Sequence record: OQ561750
DNA from: Escherichia phage LHE83
Length of the DNA stretch: 64,000 nt
Direction: 5' to 3' (one strand)
Shown: positions 4,108 through 23,240 of the stretch, in pieces
Numbering within the stretch: position 1 is the stretch's first letter
Layout: each line of letters starts with the position of its first letter
Notes under the pieces: generated by a model
What the model was told of the DNA's origin: nothing
Databases searched by the model: none
What the model saw: the letters and a program-made list of their open reading frames with translations, nothing else
Program-made: the position numbers and the translations under genes

Positions 4108-4997
4108 GTTTGTTTATCGTTCCTATTTTCAGTATGCGTAGTTACGAAACAGGTGAATATGCCGTCCTTAAGGACGGTAATTTTCAACTCCATTTAAACC
4201 GTGCTTGCCCAGGTGATTATCTGGCTTATCCTAGAAATTCGAGCGATATCAAAGAATGCATTGAATTATTTCCTGAACTGAATTTTGTACCTCTTTGGTA
4301 TAAAGAAAATGCTTATGAAACTCGTAAACATTTTTGGTCTGAAAATGAGTTCGTTGTTGATTCGTTAATCGAATACTATGACTGCTCAGGATTGGTAACC
4401 GATATCACAGGTTATGATGGTGCTCATACCGTACAATTCAACTTTAACATTACAATGGACCCTGAAGTTCCTCGTTATTACATCGATGAGTTTATTGATA
4501 CCGACGTGGGTTCAGTTGAACGTTCGATTTATACCACAGTCCTGAATCAATGCCAGAAAGACGTCCTGGTGTCACGAGGTGCGTCCTCTGATAAGATTTT
4601 TGTAGACCAAAAGGTAATTAATCCGGCAGTAATTGAGCGTTACTCTGAAGGCCTAGCGCCTATTAAAATTGATGGTATTTTCCATCCATTCCGTATCTCT
4701 GATAAATGTTATCAATTCGAAAGAGTTGTAGACCAAGCTGCGGCTGAAGGTTCTCGCCTTTATATCACCGATCCGAATGATTCATTTAAGCGTGAAGACT
4801 ATCGTCCTGATGTAGAGATTATTAAATTCAAACCGAGTAAGGTTGAATATTATCAGATTCTGAAATCAAGACCTCATATCATTTATCATGAGAATCCCAG
4901 TTTAGTATTTCATCCTGGTCTAGCTGAATTCATTTATTTCGGTGCCCATATCCATTCTGAGCACGAAATGCCAAGTTATGAGGACGTGGTCCTTTAA
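4104..4997 (+). CDS. hypothetical protein at the beta-gt position (candidate DNA-modifying transferase)
   Basis: 297-aa ORF, ATGA-coupled to the 42-like gene and immediately upstream of uvsX; no motif recognised. Confidence 0.5.
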   Translation: MSLFIVPIFSMRSYETGEYAVLKDGNFQLHLNRACPGDYLAYPRNSSDIKECIELFPELNFVPLWYKENAYETRKHFWSENEFVVDSLIEYYDCSGLVTDITGYDGAHTVQFNFNITMDPEVPRYYIDEFIDTDVGSVERSIYTTVLNQCQKDVLVSRGASSDKIFVDQKVINPAVIERYSEGLAPIKIDGIFHPFRISDKCYQFERVVDQAAAEGSRLYITDPNDSFKREDYRPDVEIIKFKPSKVEYYQILKSRPHIIYHENPSLVFHPGLAEFIYFGAHIHSEHEMPSYEDVVL

Positions 4998-15940: not shown

Positions 15941-16237
15941 ATGTACTATGCATACGTATTAGTTCACAAGGACAAAGACGGGTACGAAATTCCATTAGAA
16001 GAGGCCGGTGAAGTGACTTTGTATTCGACAAAGATTGGAGCCGATACCGCTCTATCCGTTTATGAAATGTCAACAAAAAGATATCTTCGGCTTGGACGCC
16101 TTGAAACGGTGTGCACACCTAGAAAATGGTGGTTTGATAAGTGGGAAACTAAAACAGTATATCCTACCGAAGAACGAGCCCGAGAACTTAAATTAGTTTT
16201 AGACACTTTATATGTTAAGCGAGTAAAATTGGCATGA
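15941..16237 (+). CDS. hypothetical protein
   Basis: ATG 3 nt downstream of track GTG start; SD AGAGG. Confidence 0.5.
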   Translation: MYYAYVLVHKDKDGYEIPLEEAGEVTLYSTKIGADTALSVYEMSTKRYLRLGRLETVCTPRKWWFDKWETKTVYPTEERARELKLVLDTLYVKRVKLA

Positions 16238-17565
16238 TTACATTTGAAGACTTGAACAACGGCCAGAGGACGGCCTTTAAAGAAATCATTGAAGCTATTA
16301 AACGACGTAAGGGTGAATGGATTACATTGAACGGTCCTGCTGGTACAGGTAAAACAACCCTTACCAAATTTATTCTTGACCATCTAGTCAAGAATGGTGA
16401 ACTCGGAGTTATTTTGACTGCGCCTACTCATGCGGCCAAAAAGGTATTGTCGAAACTCGCAGGTCAAGAAGCATCAACAATTCATAGAATTCTAAAAATT
16501 AACCCTACTACGTACGAAGACCAGGACATCTTTGAACAACGCGAAGCTCCTGACTTGAGCAAATGTAATGTTCTAGTTGTTGACGAAGGCTCGATGATTG
16601 ACGGTAAGCTGTTTAAGATTATTGAATCCTCCGTGCCACCATGGTGTACTGTATTAGGGATTGGCGACAGAGCTCAGCTACAGCCAGTGGAACCTGGAAG
16701 TGATGGTAGCCCTCAGTTGTCTCCATTCTTTACACATCCAAAAATCAAACAATTACATTTGACTGAAGTGATGCGTAGTAATGCTCCTATCATTGAGGTG
16801 GCTACTGAAATCCGTAATGGTGGGTGGTTTAGAGATTGTGTATTCGAAGGACATGGTGTCCATGGTTTTAAATCCCAAACAGCATTAAAAGATTTTATGA
16901 TGAATTATTTTTCCATTGTAAAAGATGCTGATGCCCTGTTTGAGAATAGGATGTTTGCTTATACCAATAAATCGGTTGAAAAGCTGAATAGCATTATTCG
17001 TAAAAAGCTTTATGAAACCGATGCACCTTATATCAAGGGCGAAATCCTAGTGATGCAAGAGCCTTTTATGAAGGAACTTGAATACGATGGTAAGAAATTC
17101 TCTGAAACCATTTTTAATAACGGACAAATGGTTCGTATTCTGGATGTGAACCATACCTCGTTGTTTTTGTCTGCTAAGGATGTAGGCACTCGTCAAATGA
17201 TTAATTACTGGGACCTGCAAGTAGAATCTGTTGATGAAGACGACGAGTACTATGTAGAGCATTTAAAGGTTATCGATGAGGCTTCAGTTGAGAAGTTCCA
17301 TTATTTCTTGGCTAAGGTTGCTACAGAGTACAAAGCCATGCGTGGTAGTGGTAAGAAACCTAAGTGGGCTGATTTCTGGAAAGCCAAGCGAATGTTCAGT
17401 AAGGTTCGAGCTCTTCCTGTGAGCACTGTTCATAAATCCCAAGGACTTACAGTCCAAAACAGTTTCATCTATACTCCATGCATGCATATGGCTGATGCGA
17501 ATTTAGCTTCACAGCTGGCTTATGTTAGTATTACTCGTGCTCGTACTGACGCCTACTACGTTTGA
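16234..17565 (+). CDS. dda: Dda SF1 DNA helicase
   Basis: Walker A LNGPAGTGKTT; 443 aa. Confidence 0.85.
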   Translation: MITFEDLNNGQRTAFKEIIEAIKRRKGEWITLNGPAGTGKTTLTKFILDHLVKNGELGVILTAPTHAAKKVLSKLAGQEASTIHRILKINPTTYEDQDIFEQREAPDLSKCNVLVVDEGSMIDGKLFKIIESSVPPWCTVLGIGDRAQLQPVEPGSDGSPQLSPFFTHPKIKQLHLTEVMRSNAPIIEVATEIRNGGWFRDCVFEGHGVHGFKSQTALKDFMMNYFSIVKDADALFENRMFAYTNKSVEKLNSIIRKKLYETDAPYIKGEILVMQEPFMKELEYDGKKFSETIFNNGQMVRILDVNHTSLFLSAKDVGTRQMINYWDLQVESVDEDDEYYVEHLKVIDEASVEKFHYFLAKVATEYKAMRGSGKKPKWADFWKAKRMFSKVRALPVSTVHKSQGLTVQNSFIYTPCMHMADANLASQLAYVSITRARTDAYYV

Positions 17566-17572
17566 GGAAAAT

Positions 17573-17812
17573 ATGATTAAAGTAACTAAAGACCAATTTT
17601 ATAAGTTGAAATTCGAAACCGAACATATTATTAAAGTCAACCAAAATAATATCAGCATTAGGCAAAAGGCCCATACTGTCCTGAACTCTCTTAAAGAGAT
17701 TGAAAGTGATTTTATTGCAGTACAAAATCTGATGGACGACAATATCTCTTCGGTTTATATTGAAGACTACACCGTTGGCCAAATCCGAGACCTTATGAGG
17801 TACGTTAAATGA
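17573..17812 (+). CDS. hypothetical protein
   Basis: SD GAGGA. Confidence 0.5.
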   Translation: MIKVTKDQFYKLKFETEHIIKVNQNNISIRQKAHTVLNSLKEIESDFIAVQNLMDDNISSVYIEDYTVGQIRDLMRYVK

Positions 17813-18483
17813 AAGATATAATTATTGACTTTGAAACCTTTGCCACTACTCAAAATGCAGCGGTTATCGACCTAGCCGTAATTGCTTACGACCCTAATCC
17901 AGAGGTTGTAGAAACGTTTGAAGAGCTTACTAAACGAGGCCTTCGTATTAAATTTGACCTCGCTTCTCAACGTGATAAACGACTGTTTTCTAAAAGCACG
18001 TTGCAGTGGTGGAAAGAGCAAGGGCCTGAAGCGCGTAAAAACCTGGCTCCATCTGAAATTGATGTGTCCACTTCTATTGGTCTCGGTAATTTCCTGGAAT
18101 ACTGTCGTAAAAACGAAGTAGACCAATGGAAATCCCAGATGTGGTGTCGTGGAATGTCCTTTGACTTTCCTATCTTAGTCGACCTTATTCGTGATGCTTA
18201 TCGTTCTGAAGGGGTTCCTGAGAATGAAATCGATACCAGTAAATTAGAACCGGTTAAATTCTGGAACCAACGTGACATCCGTACAGCTATTGAAGCATAT
18301 TCACTAACTCGTGGATTGAGCATGTGTCCTCTGCCTAACGGAACATTGAACGGCTTTGTTGCTCATGACTCCATCCATGACTGTGCTAAGGATATCTTGA
18401 TGCTGAAATATGCCCAACGTTATGCCTTAGGCCTGGAAGATGTCCCTGAGAATCCGGACCCATTAAGTATAAAAAATCGATAA
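17809..18483 (+). CDS. dexA: exonuclease A (DexA-like, DEDD family)
   Basis: IIIDFETF N-terminal exonuclease motif; size ~T4 DexA. Confidence 0.7.
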   Translation: MKDIIIDFETFATTQNAAVIDLAVIAYDPNPEVVETFEELTKRGLRIKFDLASQRDKRLFSKSTLQWWKEQGPEARKNLAPSEIDVSTSIGLGNFLEYCRKNEVDQWKSQMWCRGMSFDFPILVDLIRDAYRSEGVPENEIDTSKLEPVKFWNQRDIRTAIEAYSLTRGLSMCPLPNGTLNGFVAHDSIHDCAKDILMLKYAQRYALGLEDVPENPDPLSIKNR

Positions 18484-18487
18484 AAGT

Positions 18488-18516
18488 GTTTACTTCTCCT
18501 CATGACATGTTATTAT
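18488..18516 (+). promoter_or_regulatory. early promoter (GTTTAC, 17 bp, TGtTATTAT) flanked by 10-bp inverted repeat
   Basis: Arms TCTCCTCATG 18495-18504 and CATGAGGAGA 18529-18538; the 3' arm contains the SD. Confidence 0.7.
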
Positions 18517-18543
18517 CTACCCTATCAACATGAGGAGAACAAA

Positions 18544-19053
18544 ATGAAAATTTATCGAGTCGAGTCATCGTTCAGTATCTTAGATAACAGCGATGTTATA
18601 GCAATCACTCACCAACAGTGCCGCCAATTAACACCGTATAGAGGCTCGTTTGATGAATGGAGCGAAGGTTGGTTATTAGAAGTAGGTTTCGACAGACCCA
18701 ATTTTAGGCACCACCATACCAATAATAAAAATATTCCGCTACCAGGTCAAGACAAGTTGTTGGTGGAAAATTCTAATAAAAGCATTAGAACTAAGTGGAA
18801 CCAGCCTGATTATGAAGGCTGTGATGATTATATTCCAGGTTGGTTTGTTAATCTCTACCATTTTGCTTTTGCCAGTGAGTATGATATGATGCGCTGGTTC
18901 ACTCGTGAAGAGCGTGAAGAATTATCTTCTAAAGGATTCTATCTTGCCGTTTACGAAATCCCTGAAGATGAGGTTGTCATTGGTGGCCGCCAAGTAATGT
19001 TCCGCAAATCCCATGCTGAACTCGTAGATTTTATTGAATTGAGAACAATATGA
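18544..19053 (+). CDS. hypothetical protein
   Basis: SD GAGGAG. Confidence 0.55.
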   Translation: MKIYRVESSFSILDNSDVIAITHQQCRQLTPYRGSFDEWSEGWLLEVGFDRPNFRHHHTNNKNIPLPGQDKLLVENSNKSIRTKWNQPDYEGCDDYIPGWFVNLYHFAFASEYDMMRWFTREEREELSSKGFYLAVYEIPEDEVVIGGRQVMFRKSHAELVDFIELRTI

Positions 19054-19598
19054 AATTTAATTACAACCCTAAATACACCCCGAATCCGGCAGCTAAACTG
19101 ATTGATTTTGATGTTTTAAGCACTTATGTATGCCCTGTTAAACCACTGGAAATTAAGGAACCTGCTATGAATACTCAGACTATCGAAATCGGCAAAACCT
19201 ACAAACTGGTTGAACCTGAAATTAAAACTAAGGCCTTGATTTCCGGCCATAAAACCCTGACTGATGTTTTTGGTGAAGGCGAATTTATTGTTGAAGAATT
19301 TGCCAAAAGTGAGTGGTTCTCTAAAGCCTATATTCTCCACGGCCGTCGTTTAGACAATAACAAAATTGAGCAAACCCTGGTTTATGAAGATGAGTTCATC
19401 CTGTTCCAAGAAGTTGAAGAACAAGACCCTACCGACCTTCTAACTCGTGCTGTGTCTATCCGTCGTCCTTTTGATAATCCTATCTGTGGATGGGTAACAG
19501 ACCAGTGGGTTGAAGACGGTGTTGAGCTGCTGAACGTTGTACATGCTGGTGATTTTAGCGTAGTACCTCGTAGTGCAGTGGTTAATGTATTGAATTAG
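19050..19598 (+). CDS. hypothetical protein, tandem paralog A
   Basis: C-terminal GWVTDQWVEDGVELLNVV...VVP shared with next gene. Confidence 0.6.
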   Translation: MKFNYNPKYTPNPAAKLIDFDVLSTYVCPVKPLEIKEPAMNTQTIEIGKTYKLVEPEIKTKALISGHKTLTDVFGEGEFIVEEFAKSEWFSKAYILHGRRLDNNKIEQTLVYEDEFILFQEVEEQDPTDLLTRAVSIRRPFDNPICGWVTDQWVEDGVELLNVVHAGDFSVVPRSAVVNVLN

Positions 19599-19600
19599 TA

Positions 19601-19629
19601 GTTTACTTTATCGAGAGCCATGTTATAAT
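19601..19629 (+). promoter_or_regulatory. early promoter (GTTTAC, 17 bp, TGtTATAAT) embedded in 9-bp inverted repeat
   Basis: Arms GAGAGCCAT 19613-19621 / ATGGCTCTC 19628-19636. Confidence 0.7.
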
Positions 19630-19671
19630 GGCTCTCATGGAGAATAAACTTATTAACCAAGAGAGAAAATT

Positions 19672-20223
19672 ATGATTACTATCGGTGAAATTGTTCGTGT
19701 ATCCAAAGAATCTCGCTCAAAAGCCGCAGGTCGTTTTGTTGAAGTTGCAGGTATTCGTACTAATTTAGTAGGCGGAATTAAAGAAGTTAAAGTGCGTATT
19801 ATTCCTAAAAATGGCCATACCGAAACCGAATTTGCCTATGTGCATCCTAAATTCTTGGAATCGACTGAATTTACTGGACACATCGCTCCTGTAGTTGAAG
19901 AAGTTGAATCCCATGATGGGTATGTATGTGAAAGCAATGATATCCGTGGCGTAGTAGCTCAAGACGTTGAAACTATTGACCAATCTCATGTTGGTGTTGA
20001 TTTCAAATGGAAATTAGGTAAAGGTGTCTTTTTCGTTTCACCTAAACCGTTTGAATACAATTGCAAGTATGGCCCGACTTATGAAACCACTAGTATGTCC
20101 GGTTACATCACAGACCAATGGGTTGAAGAAGGTGTTAAGCTGTATAACATCGTGTTCCTTGGCACCTTTAAAGTAGTTCCTGAAAGTTTTATTGTTGAGT
20201 ACGCTGATATTCATTTTGCATAA
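19672..20223 (+). CDS. hypothetical protein, tandem paralog B
   Basis: C-terminal GYITDQWVEEGVKLYNIV...VVP. Confidence 0.6.
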   Translation: MITIGEIVRVSKESRSKAAGRFVEVAGIRTNLVGGIKEVKVRIIPKNGHTETEFAYVHPKFLESTEFTGHIAPVVEEVESHDGYVCESNDIRGVVAQDVETIDQSHVGVDFKWKLGKGVFFVSPKPFEYNCKYGPTYETTSMSGYITDQWVEEGVKLYNIVFLGTFKVVPESFIVEYADIHFA

Positions 20224-20295
20224 AGTTTAAAAACAGTATACACTATGGTAGGGTAGTGATACTATTACCCTATCAACAAATGAGAGGAAAATAAA

Positions 20296-20514
20296 ATGGC
20301 TAAAGTTACTGTGAACTCGACTCGTGAAGAATTTGAAGATGTTCTGTTCAACCCTGATTTAATCGTGGTTCAAAAGGAACATTCTGATACGTTTTCTCAT
20401 TTATCGTCGGTTTATGTATACGAAAACCAAGGTGACAAAAATCCTATCTATGCAGTGTTCCGTGAAATCACTGCTGAAGGCATTGACTACTGGAAGGAGA
20501 CTTATAATGTCTAA
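20296..20514 (+). CDS. hypothetical protein
   Basis: SD GAGAGGA. Confidence 0.5.
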   Translation: MAKVTVNSTREEFEDVLFNPDLIVVQKEHSDTFSHLSSVYVYENQGDKNPIYAVFREITAEGIDYWKETYNV

Positions 20515-20911
20515 TGAAGCTAAATTTGAAGCCGGTAAATGGTACTATTTTAAAGATGAGGCGGCCGAAGCTGAATTCCGTCGTAGAGATATCAATAATA
20601 TTGTAGCCGATGTTATTATTGAAGGTGAAGGTTTTTCCCCGGTTAAAATTTCAAATGGATGTGTAATCAACTTCGACCTGGTTTACGGCGATAATAAAGA
20701 TATGGTTATATACGCTAGTGAGAGGAAATTTTTTACCGAAATGGTTGAAGTTGAGTGCGACGAAGAATTGGATGAAGACCGTGATTATGGCTACGATGAT
20801 AGTGATGATCTGTCCGAACTAAGTGATTTCCCTTTGACTAAAATCACTATCTCTAATAATTCTGAAGCCTGGTCAGTTTACCAGATGTTGAAAGCTCACT
20901 TTAAGGAATAA
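20507..20911 (+). CDS. hypothetical protein with acidic C-terminus
   Basis: SD GGAGA; internal start of track ORF 20414. Confidence 0.5.
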   Translation: MSNEAKFEAGKWYYFKDEAAEAEFRRRDINNIVADVIIEGEGFSPVKISNGCVINFDLVYGDNKDMVIYASERKFFTEMVEVECDEELDEDRDYGYDDSDDLSELSDFPLTKITISNNSEAWSVYQMLKAHFKE

Positions 20912-20912
20912 T

Positions 20913-21089
20913 ATGCCACTTTATGATTACAAATGCCAATCTGAAGACTGTGCAAAAGAATACGAAAAAATCAAGAAAATCTCTGAAAGAGATAATGATG
21001 TTTGTCCTGATTGCCATCGGCTGGCTGTTCGGTTAGTCTCGGCTCCTAAACATGTTAATGGCGGTTTTTACGACCTGCTGACTAAGTGA
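20913..21089 (+). CDS. small zinc-ribbon protein (FmdB-like, 58 aa)
   Basis: MPLYDYKCQ..C...CPDC pattern; below ORF-track cutoff. Confidence 0.5.
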   Translation: MPLYDYKCQSEDCAKEYEKIKKISERDNDVCPDCHRLAVRLVSAPKHVNGGFYDLLTK

Positions 21090-21095
21090 GAAATT

Positions 21096-21356
21096 ATGAA
21101 ATATATTAATCGTTCTATTGCAGCTCTCGTATTAGCAGTTTCTTTGGTTGGATGTACTGATGCCGATAATGCTACCCGTGTATTGGATGCAAATGGCTAC
21201 GAACAAATCCAAATCACAGGATACAACCTATTTGGCTGCTCTGAAGATGATTTCCAACGTACAGGCTTTATTGCTGTGGGTCCGACAGGTAAAAGGGTTG
21301 AAGGAACTGTTTGTTCTGGATTATTCTTTAAAAAGTCGACCATTCGATTTGATTAA
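21096..21356 (+). CDS. predicted lipoprotein
   Basis: Lipobox LVGC. Confidence 0.55.
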   Translation: MKYINRSIAALVLAVSLVGCTDADNATRVLDANGYEQIQITGYNLFGCSEDDFQRTGFIAVGPTGKRVEGTVCSGLFFKKSTIRFD

Positions 21357-21372
21357 GGGCTTCGGCCCTTTT
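21357..21372 (+). terminator. intrinsic terminator (GGGC-UUCG-GCCC + U4)
   Basis: Hairpin plus T-run directly after stop. Confidence 0.7.
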
Positions 21373-21373
21373 A

Positions 21374-21398
21374 TGCTTTAAGTGAAATGGGATAATAT
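21374..21398 (+). promoter_or_regulatory. candidate MotA-dependent middle promoter (TGCTTTA box + TAATAT) upstream of gene 39
   Basis: MotA-box-like ATGCTTTA 12 nt upstream of -10-like TAATAT. Confidence 0.5.
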
Positions 21399-21422
21399 TC
21401 TCCTACTACATGAGGAAATAAC

Positions 21423-23240
21423 ATGATTAAGAATGAAATTAAAGTACTGTCCGACATTGAACATATCAAAAAACGTAGTGGGATGTATATTGGCTCAAGT
21501 GCTAATGAAGCTCACGGTCGATTCCTGTTTGGTAATTTTACACAGGTAAACTATGTTCCTGGACTGGTTAAATTAATTGATGAAATCATTGATAACTCTG
21601 TCGATGAAGCTATTCGTACCAATTTTAAATTCGCAAATAAAATTGATGTTCAAATTAAGAATAACCAGGTTTCAGTTTCTGATAATGGTCGTGGTATTCC
21701 ACAAGCAATGGTCACCGACCAAAATGGTGAACAGATTCCAGGTCCTGTAGCTGCATGGACTATTCCAAAGGCAGGTGGTAACTTTGGAGATGACGCTGAG
21801 CGTAAGACAGGCGGCATGAATGGTGTCGGTAGTAGTTTAACTAATATCTTCTCTGTTTTGTTCACCGGCATCACCTCTGATGGTGAGAATGAGATTACTG
21901 TTAACTGTTCAAACGGAATGGAAAACAAAGGTTGGTCTACTAAGAAATCTAAAGGTAAGGGTACTTCGGTTATATTCACCCCAGACTTTAATCATTTCGA
22001 AGAAAATAGCCTGTCACAAATTTATCTGGATATTACATTAGACCGATTGCAAACTCTGGCCGTAGTTTATCCTGATATTCAATTTACTTTTAATGGTAAA
22101 AAAGTAGATGGCAACTTTAAAAAGTATGCTAAGCAATTTGGTGAAGACTTTGTAATCCAAGAAACCGATAATGTTTCGATGGCATTTACTCCTTCTCCGG
22201 ATGGATTCCGTCAACTGACTTATGTAAACAATATCCACACCAAGAATGGTGGCCACCACGTTGAATGTGTATTCGATGATATTTGTGAACACCTTCTGCC
22301 AGGCATTAAAAAGAAATACCGTGGAATTGAAGTAACTAAAGCTCGTGTTAAAGAATGCCTTACGATGGTGATGTTCATTCGTGATATGAGCAACATGCGT
22401 TTTGATTCACAGACTAAAGAACGTTTGACCTCTCCTTTTGGTGAGATTCGCAATCATATCCAAATTGATGCTAAGAAAATTGCTCAAGCCATTCTTAAAG
22501 TTGATGGGTTGATTATGCCTATCGTTGAAGCTGCTTTAGCACGTAAATTAGCAGCTGAAAAGGCTGCCGAAACTAAAGCCGCTAAGAAAGCTTCTAAAGC
22601 CAAGGTCCATAAGCATATTAAAGCTAACCTATACGGCAAAGATGCTGATACAACCCTGTTCCTAACCGAAGGTGATTCCGCTATGGGTCCTTTCATTGAA
22701 GTTCGTAATAAAGACCTTCAAGGTGGTTACCCATTGCGTGGTAAGGTTATGAATACCTGGGGAATGACAGCAACAGATATCATGAAGAACAAGGAACTAT
22801 TTGATATCTGTGCAATCACTGGATTGGTTATTGGTGAACCCGCAGATAAAACCAACTATCGTAATATTGCTATTATGACCGATGCCGATGTGGATGGTAC
22901 TGGTTCGATTTATCCATCATTGCTAGCCTTCTTTAGTCAATGGCCCGAATTGTTCGAACAAGGCCGAGTACGGTTCTGTAAAACTCCGGTGATTATTGCT
23001 CAGGTTGGTAAAGAACAGGAATGGTTCTATGATGTGCCTAGTTATACCAAAGCTAAGGACTCTCTACCAAAACACTCCATTCGTTATATCAAAGGACTGG
23101 GTTCTCTTGAGAAGGCTGAATACCGTCGAATGATTCAAGACCCTAAATTTGATGTGGTTCAATTACCTGAAGATTGGAAAGAACAGTTCGAAATGCTCCT
23201 TGGTAATGACCCACAACTCCGTAAGGCCTGGATGTCGTAA
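21423..23240 (+). CDS. 39: topoisomerase II large subunit (GyrB-like), uninterrupted gp39+gp60-equivalent
   Basis: 605 aa, GHKL ATPase and TOPRIM motifs; no split/bypass as in T4 gene 60. Confidence 0.9.
   Translation: MIKNEIKVLSDIEHIKKRSGMYIGSSANEAHGRFLFGNFTQVNYVPGLVKLIDEIIDNSVDEAIRTNFKFANKIDVQIKNNQVSVSDNGRGIPQAMVTDQNGEQIPGPVAAWTIPKAGGNFGDDAERKTGGMNGVGSSLTNIFSVLFTGITSDGENEITVNCSNGMENKGWSTKKSKGKGTSVIFTPDFNHFEENSLSQIYLDITLDRLQTLAVVYPDIQFTFNGKKVDGNFKKYAKQFGEDFVIQETDNVSMAFTPSPDGFRQLTYVNNIHTKNGGHHVECVFDDICEHLLPGIKKKYRGIEVTKARVKECLTMVMFIRDMSNMRFDSQTKERLTSPFGEIRNHIQIDAKKIAQAILKVDGLIMPIVEAALARKLAAEKAAETKAAKKASKAKVHKHIKANLYGKDADTTLFLTEGDSAMGPFIEVRNKDLQGGYPLRGKVMNTWGMTATDIMKNKELFDICAITGLVIGEPADKTNYRNIAIMTDADVDGTGSIYPSLLAFFSQWPELFEQGRVRFCKTPVIIAQVGKEQEWFYDVPSYTKAKDSLPKHSIRYIKGLGSLEKAEYRRMIQDPKFDVVQLPEDWKEQFEMLLGNDPQLRKAWMS

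Follow-up and report, generated by a model that had tools for sequence, protein, structure and literature searches.

Adjacent early genes for MotB and a long form of MotB.1 in a Dhakavirus-type phage share a C-terminal domain behind different N-terminal domains

Two adjacent early genes of Escherichia phage LHE83 (sequence record OQ561750) are identified, by profile matches and gene order, as motB.1 in a long form (ORF1) and motB (ORF2). Their products share a C-terminal domain that stands behind quite different N-terminal domains, an arrangement better explained by duplication with an exchange of domains than by duplication with simple divergence. We consider this account of the identity and the evolutionary origin of the pair to be very probably correct. 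The gene pair itself, the common C-terminal domain and the idea of a duplication are already known: Patterson-West et al. 2021 (PMC7827196) reported a common C-terminal domain with differing N-terminal domains and proposed duplication, MotB.1 corresponds to categories 2-4 of that paper, and its Table S4 includes the JS98 ortholog of ORF1. Added here, and potentially useful to workers on these genes, are the same C-terminal strand pattern in both proteins with no conserved basic residue, a single-gene form in a Klebsiella phage, and an extra G in the T4 reference sequence of MotB.1.

The window, by which is meant the whole stretch of 64,000 nucleotides that was analysed, is assigned by nucleotide identity to a JS98-like, T4-type phage of the genus Dhakavirus. 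By megablast it is 99.1 % identical to Escherichia phage LQ5, with identities of 88-97 % to phages WG01, QL01, Bp7, JS98 and IME08. Genes in the region of interest run dda, dda.1-like, dexA, motB.2, motB.1, motB, cef, goF-like, 39.2, 39.1 and 39, and the order from dda to 39 is identical in JS98 and T4. An earlier note, made from the letters of this DNA, had described adjacent proteins of 182 and 183 residues in the motB early region; they are encoded exactly at the coordinates that it gave, and the genes lie one directly after the other on the plus strand between dexA and gene 39. The features discussed below are as follows.

18544..19053, plus strand: motB.2, a context gene (phrog_1106, E 2e-54; 69 % identical to T4 MotB.2)
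19050..19598, plus strand: ORF1, motB.1 in its long form, 182 aa (phrog_2333; JS98 synteny; hhalign with T4 MotB.1)
19050..19166, plus strand: N-terminal extension of ORF1, residues 1-39, not in T4 MotB.1 and conserved in homologs
19176..19424, plus strand: predicted N-terminal small beta-barrel of ORF1, residues ~43-125, GoF-type "LSm-like"
19425..19595, plus strand: C-terminal domain of ORF1, residues 126-182 (BLASTP, hhalign, shuffles, PF17613)
19482-19583, plus strand: block common to MotB, ORF1 residues 145-178
19601..19629, plus strand: putative T4-type early-promoter-like site (GTTTAC, ~17 nt, TG-n-TATAAT)
19672..20223, plus strand: ORF2, motB, 183 aa (PF17613, phrog_1671, identity to T4 MotB, annotation of JS98 and relatives)
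19672..19866, plus strand: N-terminal domain of MotB, residues 1-65, basic and KOW-like
19867..19983, plus strand: acidic linker of MotB, residues 66-104 (pLDDT < 50; net charge -9)
19984..20220, plus strand: C-terminal domain of MotB, residues 105-183 (AF2 pLDDT 84-96; hhalign to the ORF1 C-terminal domain)
20095-20196, plus strand: block common to ORF1, MotB residues 142-175
20513-20908: GoF-like gene (phrog_622 family)

By its sequence, ORF2 is MotB. The Pfam motB model (PF17613) covers it along its entire length with 172.8 bits (cut-off 25; E 6.4e-51), phrog_1671 matches along profile positions 2-166 of 166 (E 2.2e-69), and identity to T4 MotB is 48.7 % over the full length (E 3e-56). Its place between motB.1 and cef, in the early region from dexA to gene 39, is the position of the family, and the basic KOW-like N-terminal domain and the conserved C-terminal domain are both present. 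The view of the earlier note that the sequence permits no functional assignment thus fails for ORF2, and ORF1 corresponds to the annotated motB.1. T4 MotB is made early and in abundance, binds DNA tightly whatever its sequence, is toxic in E. coli and shifts the binding and footprint of H-NS on DNA (PMC6070864, PMC7827196), and a host-takeover role, as had been suggested for the pair, agrees with this published function. The window's MotB resembles that of T4 in its full-length family match, its genomic position, its layout of basic KOW-like domain, linker and C-terminal domain, and in having likewise its own (putative) early-promoter-like site upstream. It differs in the linker, which has ~16 residues and is neutral in T4 but has 39 residues and is strongly acidic in ORF2; because of this long acidic linker the pI of the whole protein is 5.4 rather than the 9.2 of T4 MotB. 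The window's MotB, which is 49 % identical to that of T4 and acidic overall, might behave differently.

For ORF1, phrog_2333 aligns residues 1-182 with profile positions 1-210 of 210 (E 4.3e-86), the syntenic gene of JS98 is annotated motB.1, and a homologous protein is 98 % identical. ORF1 carries the MotB-type C-terminal domain, and the place of motB.1 upstream of motB is kept in Dhakavirus and Tequatrovirus genomes; gene order is also unchanged on a metagenome contig with the motB.1 locus. Comparison with T4 MotB.1 calls for a correction. The T4 reference protein (119 aa, UniProt P39415) reflects one extra G that is found in the reference record only, while in all of the other records that match, 13 in number (10 from T4, together with T4T, RB55 and RB59), the product has 143 aa and its MotB-type C-terminal domain is complete. 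Owing to the extra G, the 119-aa protein is missing the last two thirds of the common block, and it looks like the product of a one-base error or of a strain-specific insertion. The synthetic 119-aa gene used in published plasmid experiments appears to follow the reference, so that a truncated MotB.1 would have been tested. Corrected T4 MotB.1 aligns with positions 43-210 of phrog_2333 (E 1.8e-68), and the last 79 residues of ORF1 (104-182) are 67 % identical to it (hhalign E 1.3e-35). The two proteins have the PHROG, the linker, the C-terminal domain and the place directly upstream of motB in common, but the 39-residue extension of ORF1 is missing from T4, and residues 40-103 of ORF1 could not be aligned with residues 1-63 of the T4 protein.

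The extension is strongly conserved across 121 homologs; its residues 19-26 (19104-19127) form the motif D-x-D-[VI]-x-S-[MT]-Y. Differences per codon among 8 phages are more frequent at the third position (0.189) than at the first (0.128) or second (0.098), and longer in-frame variants of 245-250 aa occur at the motB.1 locus. Met40, which has AAGGA 7 nt upstream, was rejected as the sole start of ORF1 on the evidence of the third-position excess in codons 1-39, the longer in-frame variants and a conserved ATGA overlap with motB.2; it may serve as an additional internal start. In other architectures the D-x-D-[VI]-x-S-[MT]-Y motif is found directly before the C-terminal domain. A model in which the extension packs onto the C-terminal domain, making the barrel an inserted domain, was also discarded, since AF2 predicts residues 1-42 to be disordered (pLDDT ~30) and only the order of the motifs remains in its favor.

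Behind the extension, AF2 predicts a five-stranded bent barrel (pLDDT ~77), and this part of ORF1 matches the GoF family model phrog_622 at E 7e-6 (3.8e-8 for a 249-aa variant). Kim et al. 2025 (PMC12152347) have published an "LSm-like" N-terminal domain for T4 MotB.1 and, in a structure-based phylogeny, grouped its barrel with those of GoF and Frd.2, apart from the KOW barrel of MotB. The likeness of the ORF1 barrel to this T4 GoF/Frd.2 fold lies in the phrog_622 match and the predicted five-stranded barrel; differences are that GoF has another C-terminal domain and is absent from the Foldseek BFVD matches. Compared by hhalign with the one GoF-like protein that the window encodes, the ORF1 family scored a probability of 0.5 %, our own HMM search gave no significant match linking the ORF1 barrel to GoF, and the Pfam scan gave no LSM or Hfq match at E <= 1. 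When ORF1 and MotB were searched against the sequences of PDB chains, nothing meaningful came up; a kinase match to ORF1 (E 7e-4) was set aside, as it falls on the poorly conserved barrel and other tools lend it no support. Codon differences among the 8 phages number 329 synonymous and 732 non-synonymous in the barrel vs 337 and 206 in the C-terminal domain, which has the highest synonymous proportion of any part of motB.1. For T4 MotB.1, neither a confident multimer model nor any RNA-related activity in the reporter assay was obtained (Kim et al. 2025, PMC12152347).

The C-terminal similarity on which the relationship of the two genes depends is genuine, as the earlier note had claimed; it had named a lack of significance on proper alignment as the outcome that would refute it, and the alignments proved significant. 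BLASTP aligns the 34-residue block without gaps, with 19/34 identities and 26/34 positives (E 3e-11). The Smith-Waterman score is 109, against 31.4 +/- 5.2 (maximum 59) in 2000 shuffles of ORF2 (z = 14.9). Profile-profile comparison by hhalign, with family alignments of 121 sequences per family as input, gives a probability of 98.7 % and E 2.4e-16 over ~50 aligned columns, spanning ORF1 130-180 and MotB 114-177, where MotB has 12 inserted residues. The Pfam motB model matches ORF1 as well, at residues 142-177 only, scoring 35.8 bits against a gathering score of 25. That the resemblance is due to chance or composition, for which the shortness of the block might speak, is refuted by these values, with PF17613 above its gathering score in both proteins. 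The likeness sits at the protein level and is not that of a recent DNA copy; the block is 64 % identical in nucleotides. A second resemblance, between FNYNPKYTPN (ORF1 3-12) and FEYNCKYGPT (MotB 127-136), has E 0.08-0.6, is not collinear with the other common motifs and was taken as chance.

AF2 models place the strands of the ORF1 C-terminal domain at 134-137, 145-155, 158-165, 168-173 and 177-179 and those of MotB at 118-130, 136-152, 155-162, 165-170 and 174-177, in the same predicted order of four beta-strands, a short helical turn and a further strand. Confidence in the ORF1 model is no more than moderate, with a mean pLDDT of 62 (62-72 in the C-terminal domain). The predicted pattern fits an SH3-type barrel, an assignment that is made because of the strand pattern together with the fact that fold searches with the two-domain models gave no OB-type match; the output of these searches is not domain-specific, so that their SH3-type matches may belong to either domain. 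Matches to SH3-type barrels (Tudor, KOW, chromo, PWWP) have a sequence identity of 10-19 %, with the matched domain not specified, and are to be read as fold resemblance rather than family membership. Both families conserve G, W/Y, T, D, Q, W, E, D/E, G, L, N, G, F, P and S, and there is no basic residue among these. The C-terminal domains are acidic (pI 4.4 in ORF1, whose overall pI is 4.8, and 5.5 in MotB), and the pI of the MotB N-terminal domain is 9.9.

These features bear on what the common domain might do. Its conserved face, G-[WY]-[VI]-T-D-Q-W-x-E-[DE]-G, would be aromatic and acidic on an SH3/Tudor-type barrel, and because it has no conserved basic residue, contacts with protein are favored over binding to the DNA backbone, the role usually assumed. 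That the domain mediates protein-protein contacts we put forward tentatively, as a possibility that has somewhat less than even support. Such contacts could be self-association, hetero-association or binding of a partner in common; DNA binding would then come mainly from the basic N-terminal domain of MotB, and MotB.1 would be brought to the complexes of MotB but with a different effector domain. A more specific form of the proposal, which we think unlikely as it stands, would make the C-terminal barrel a dedicated assembly module, through whose GW.TDQW.E[DE]G face MotB and MotB.1 would assemble together or attach to a common host partner, so that the LSm-like domain is brought to a nucleoid coated with MotB. 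Part of this module could be the D-x-D-[VI]-x-S-[MT]-Y motif, since it is N-terminal in ORF1 but directly precedes the C-terminal domain in other members of the family. Were this true, the negative plasmid results for T4 MotB.1 could be put down to the extra G, which removes two thirds of the C-terminal domain. Any cooperative role of MotB.1 with MotB would be dispensable in the laboratory, because T4 delta-motB.1 has normal burst size and latent period (PMC12152347).

The reading to be weighed most seriously against protein contact is that the common domain is a DNA-binding OB-fold, in which case MotB.1 would bind DNA too and would there be a competitor or a helper of MotB. HHpred assigned the domain to the cold-shock OB-fold in the work of Patterson-West et al. 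2021, who noted that either domain could bind DNA (PMC7827196). The domain is also the best-conserved part of both proteins, and T4 MotB copurifies with DNA (PMC6070864). This alternative seems to us rather improbable, though it deserves to be kept in mind.

As to origin, the earlier note had read the pair as a duplication followed by diversification. The duplication remains plausible, and the divergence of the N-terminal halves is real in that no similarity is detectable between them by BLASTP or hhalign; that they are diverged copies, as opposed to a KOW-like domain and a barrel that matches the GoF model, is the part that was not borne out. Plain tandem duplication, with both N-terminal halves drifted beyond recognition from one ancestral domain, is therefore distinctly unlikely. 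In addition, T4-type MotB.1 has yet another N-terminal sequence before its 67 %-identical C-terminal part, and other phages pair the C-terminal domain with KOW-like or with two LSm-like domains, which points to module exchange. Domain swapping is favored instead, because in other phages the same C-terminal domain is preceded by at least three further N-terminal arrangements; among representative clusters it follows a KOW-like domain, the T4-type MotB.1 domain, a single LSm-like domain or a tandem LSm-like pair. The family is confined to T4-like phages (18 representative clusters among 1.84 billion); a 1459-aa representative (P0252), a repeat protein matched in 12 weak stretches, was judged spurious from its sequence. 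Swapping is favored also because Klebsiella phage PhiKpNIH-6 has a single MotB-like gene, between dexA and cef, that joins the two types. In the product of this gene the N-terminal half can be aligned with MotB, and the final 54 residues share 72 % identity with the C-terminal domain of ORF1 (E 7e-25). This single-gene form is a plausible ancestral state. The ancestor would have been one gene that joined a KOW-type N-terminal domain to a C-terminal domain of the MotB.1 type, an arrangement surviving in the Klebsiella T4-like phage; after duplication, the MotB copy would have kept the KOW domain while its C-terminal domain drifted, and the MotB.1 copy would have kept the C-terminal domain almost unchanged and exchanged its N-terminal domain.

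It could also be supposed, as the setting of the genes in a dispensable, variable early region invites, that the two proteins act together against host defence, for instance by serving as a decoy for an immune system of the host or by inhibiting it, and are not directed at the nucleoid. Highly variable N-terminal modules around a constant C-terminal domain, in a family restricted to T4-like phages, would suit such a role. We regard it as very unlikely: neither this analysis nor the published MotB and MotB.1 work consulted holds evidence for it, what has been published for MotB is that it binds DNA, alters the binding of H-NS and affects burst size two-fold (PMC7827196, PMC6070864), and deletion of motB.1 is without phenotype on laboratory strains (PMC12152347).

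Some details of the surrounding sequence may be added. The stop of motB.2 overlaps the start of ORF1 in the ATGA at 19050-19053. The true start of motB.2 is likely Met15 of a mechanically called ORF that begins at 18502: the alignment with T4 MotB.2 begins at residue 15 of the window ORF, and the JS98 annotation uses the equivalent start codon. Minus-strand ORFs of 58-74 aa within both genes were dismissed as being without support and antisense to conserved coding sequence. On neither strand of 18000-21500 did an Rfam scan yield a match at E <= 0.1. The putative promoter sits in the 73-nt gap upstream of motB and is the top promoter-like match within 17400-21500 (10/12, with an extended -10 TG); its -35-type GTTTAC and -10-type TATAAT are unchanged across the window, JS98 and T4, and the spacer between them differs.

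The two adjacent genes between motB.2 and cef of phage LHE83, ORF1 (182 aa) and ORF2 (183 aa), lie exactly where the earlier note had placed them. On sequence criteria ORF2 is MotB, with matches to PF17613 (E 6.4e-51) and phrog_1671 (E 2.2e-69) and 48.7 % identity to T4 MotB over its full length, and ORF1, which matches phrog_2333 along its full length (E 4.3e-86), is the long form of MotB.1. The genes and sites of the region, in order, are:

Features of the motB region in the window
16234-17565, plus strand: dda
between dda and dexA, plus strand: a short ORF
17809-18483, plus strand: dexA
ending at 19053, plus strand: motB.2
19050-19598, plus strand: ORF1 (motB.1)
19601-19629: early-promoter-like site in the 73-nt gap before motB (GTTTAC, about 17 nt, TG-n-TATAAT)
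19672-20223, plus strand: ORF2 (motB)
20296-20514, plus strand: cef
20513-20908, stop to 20911, plus strand: goF-like gene (phrog_622)
between the goF-like gene and gene 39, plus strand: 39.2, then 39.1
21423-23240, plus strand: gene 39

Gene order is identical in JS98, where the counterparts of ORF1 and ORF2 are annotated motB.1 and motB, and in T4, but there on the minus strand. Over 18480-20300 the window shares 99.1 % identity with Escherichia phage LQ5 and 88-97 % with PSD2002, WG01, QL01, Bp7, JS98 and IME08; the records of JS98 and PSD2002 classify these two as T4-type phages of the genus Dhakavirus. The stop of motB.2 overlaps the ORF1 start (ATGA), and both hexamers of the promoter-like site, GTTTAC and TATAAT, are the same in the window, JS98 and T4, with a variable spacer between them. 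An Rfam scan of 18000-21500 gave no match. ORF1 has homologs of 176-183 aa, which are widespread in Dhakavirus and in many genomes of Tequatrovirus (RB14, for example); a Mosigvirus has a shorter one, annotated at 158 aa. The position of motB.1 is between motB.2 and motB in those Dhakavirus and Tequatrovirus genomes that were examined; Mosigvirus ESCO47 lacks motB.2, and motB.1 directly follows dexA.

The C-terminal block common to the two proteins is real, and its similarity stays significant on proper alignment. BLASTP aligned ORF1 residues 145-178 with ORF2 residues 142-175 without gaps (19/34 identities, E 3e-11), and the Smith-Waterman score of 109 stands at z = 14.9 against 2000 shuffles of ORF2 (31.4 +/- 5.2, maximum 59). 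Comparison by hhalign of the two family alignments, each of 121 sequences drawn from two database searches, extended the match to 50 columns (ORF1 130-180, MotB 114-177; probability 98.7 %, E 2.4e-16) with a 12-residue insertion in the first hairpin of the MotB C-terminal domain. The Pfam motB model exceeds its gathering score for both, over the whole length of ORF2 and over 142-177 only of ORF1; nothing in the N-terminal halves could be aligned. Nucleotide identity within the block is 64 %, so what is conserved is the protein, and the block is not a recent copy.

The gene pair with its common C-terminal domain is already known. Patterson-West et al. (2021, PMC7827196) described a conserved C-terminal domain common to T4 MotB and MotB.1, with different N-terminal regions, and proposed that duplication of one gene might have given the other; they reported both genes in forty other phages, sorted the homologs by N-terminal region into four categories, and included the ORF1 orthologs of JS98, WG01 and QL01 in a supplementary table. 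T4 MotB is toxic in E. coli, binds DNA tightly and non-specifically, has a two-fold effect on burst size, alters the H-NS footprint and up-regulates part of the H-NS regulon; H-NS and StpA copurify with it only if DNA is present. Deletion of motB.1 leaves burst size and latent period normal, and MotB.1 had little effect in an RNA reporter assay (Kim et al. 2025, PMC12152347). Thus the observation of tandem paralogs in the earlier note was correct but had been described before, and its reading of duplication followed by diversification is only partly right, as the domain architectures below indicate. What the common barrel binds is part of the published MotB/MotB.1 problem and is not specific to the window.

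In the T4 reference NC_000866.4, motB.1 (4292-4651, minus strand; 119 aa) ends ...GWVTDQWIGRWR, and the remainder of the C-terminal domain (EDGVELLNVVHAGEYSVVPRSAVVAILN) lies in another frame. Over 517 nt the resequenced T4 OZ209023.1 differs only in having one G fewer (ATTGAAG vs ATTGGAAG), and its motB.1 (412-843 of the extracted segment) gives a 143-aa product. An 80-nt probe with the extra G matched only AF158101.6 and NC_000866.4 at 100 %; the 79-nt probe without it matched 13 other records at 100 % (T4T, RB55, RB59 and ten other T4), all encoding a 143-aa MotB.1. The 119-aa, "13.8 kDa" MotB.1 thus most likely reflects a mistake in the reference or a change confined to that stock. For their phage-derived constructs Kim et al. 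(PMC12152347) cite NC_000866.4; their plasmids were made by gene synthesis, and the product they report is of 13.8 kDa. Two thirds of the common block were probably missing from the MotB.1 that they expressed from a plasmid. The RB69 reference NC_004928.1 has two apparent frameshifts within the motB.1 C-terminal domain (540-730 of the segment compared), and its 29-aa ORF012c, "category 3" of Patterson-West (2021), reads as the tail of that domain in another frame.

Of 1.84 billion representative clusters, a profile search with the ORF1 family matched just 18, one of them a spurious match to a repeat protein. In the remainder, one type of C-terminal domain follows a MotB-like KOW domain, a T4-type MotB.1 domain, one LSm-like barrel, two tandem LSm-like barrels (representative P0242), or an extra N-terminal module of about 65 residues in variants of 245-250 aa. 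One such variant occupies the same locus, with the same gene order, in a 170-kb contig (3001-3750 of the segment compared). In these long proteins (P0032, P0073, P0082-P0084, P0243) an unrelated module of about 80 residues replaces the first ~16 residues in frame, and the overlap with the motB.2 stop is kept. In Klebsiella phage PhiKpNIH-6 (Marfavirus) only one MotB-like gene (126 aa; 2276-2656 of its segment) lies between dexA and cef. The N-terminal half of its product can be aligned with MotB, and the final 54 residues show 72 % identity to the C-terminal domain of ORF1; the gene may represent the ancestral state before duplication. The varied N-terminal arrangements and the PhiKpNIH-6 gene fit one ancestral gene and its duplication, after which the MotB copy would have retained the KOW domain and diverged in its C-terminal domain, and the MotB.1 copy would have retained the C-terminal domain and exchanged the N-terminal one. 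ORF1 aligns with the corrected T4 MotB.1 only over 104-182 (67 % identity); N-terminal exchange has therefore taken place within MotB.1 too. A 43-aa metagenomic protein (P0256) joins the first ~14 residues of MotB.2 to the last 28 of the MotB.1 C-terminal domain and looks like a deletion of most of motB.2 and motB.1.

AF2 models (mean pLDDT 73.8 for MotB, 62.4 for ORF1) divide the proteins as follows.

Predicted domains and charge
MotB 1-63: folded N-terminal domain, pI 9.9
MotB 66-104: disordered linker, pI 4.05, net charge -9
MotB C-terminal domain: strands 118-130, 136-152, 155-162, 165-170, short helical turn, 174-177; pLDDT 84-96; pI 5.5
MotB, whole: pI 5.4 (T4 MotB, 9.2)
ORF1 1-42: disordered start
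ORF1 44-122: barrel of five strands and one inserted helix, pLDDT ~77
ORF1 C-terminal domain: strands 134-137, 145-155, 158-165, 168-173, helical turn, 177-179; pLDDT 62-72; pI 4.4
ORF1, whole: pI 4.8

The modelled C-terminal domains have the same strand pattern, the sole difference being the longer first hairpin of MotB, at the site of the hhalign insertion. Foldseek against viral models gave confident matches to family members only, including T4 P39415 (E 8e-8). A common "LSm-like" five-stranded barrel has been predicted for the N-terminal domains of T4 MotB.1, GoF and Frd.2 (Kim et al. 2025, PMC12152347). The family of the goF-like gene two genes downstream, phrog_622, also matches the ORF1 barrel, so that ORF1 would share one of its domains with the goF-like protein and the other with MotB, all within ~1.9 kb.

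The basic character of T4 MotB has been cited as a rationale for its DNA binding. The Dhakavirus MotB as a whole is acidic because of its 39-residue linker (19867-19983), strongly acidic and predicted to be disordered. Both families share the pattern G-[WY]-[VI]-T-D-Q-W-[VI]-E-[DE]-G-V-x-L-x-N-[VI]-V-x-x-G-x-[FY]-x-V-[VI]-P-x-S, in which no basic residue is conserved across the two alignments. Among eight phages, codon differences in motB.1 were 337 synonymous vs 206 non-synonymous in the C-terminal domain and 329 vs 732 in the barrel; the C-terminal domain has the highest synonymous proportion, a sign that constraint is probably strongest there. From charge and conservation we infer that the common domain may make protein contacts rather than DNA backbone contacts, the basic N-terminal domain of MotB being the more likely DNA binder.

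Residues 1-39 of ORF1 are highly conserved in the alignment of 121 sequences, third-position differences exceed those at first or second positions of these codons, and the segment runs on in frame into the longer variants; it is probably translated. Within it lies D-x-D-[VI]-x-S-[MT]-Y (residues 19-26, 19104-19127), a motif separated from the C-terminal domain by ~100 residues. In five other representatives (P0247, P0249, P0250, P0251, P0257; one N-terminal domain of T4-MotB.1 type, four KOW-like) the motif directly precedes the DPTDLL start of that domain, at the same profile positions as in ORF1, each match being weak singly. The difference in motif order between ORF1 and the other proteins could have come about by insertion of the LSm-like barrel into a single module, splitting it in two; in the AF2 model of ORF1 the motif segment packs against nothing. 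The internal Met40 of ORF1 is invariant and corresponds to the T4 MotB.1 start, with AAGGA 7 nt upstream (19140-19170), and a second, internal start giving a 143-aa product is conceivable.
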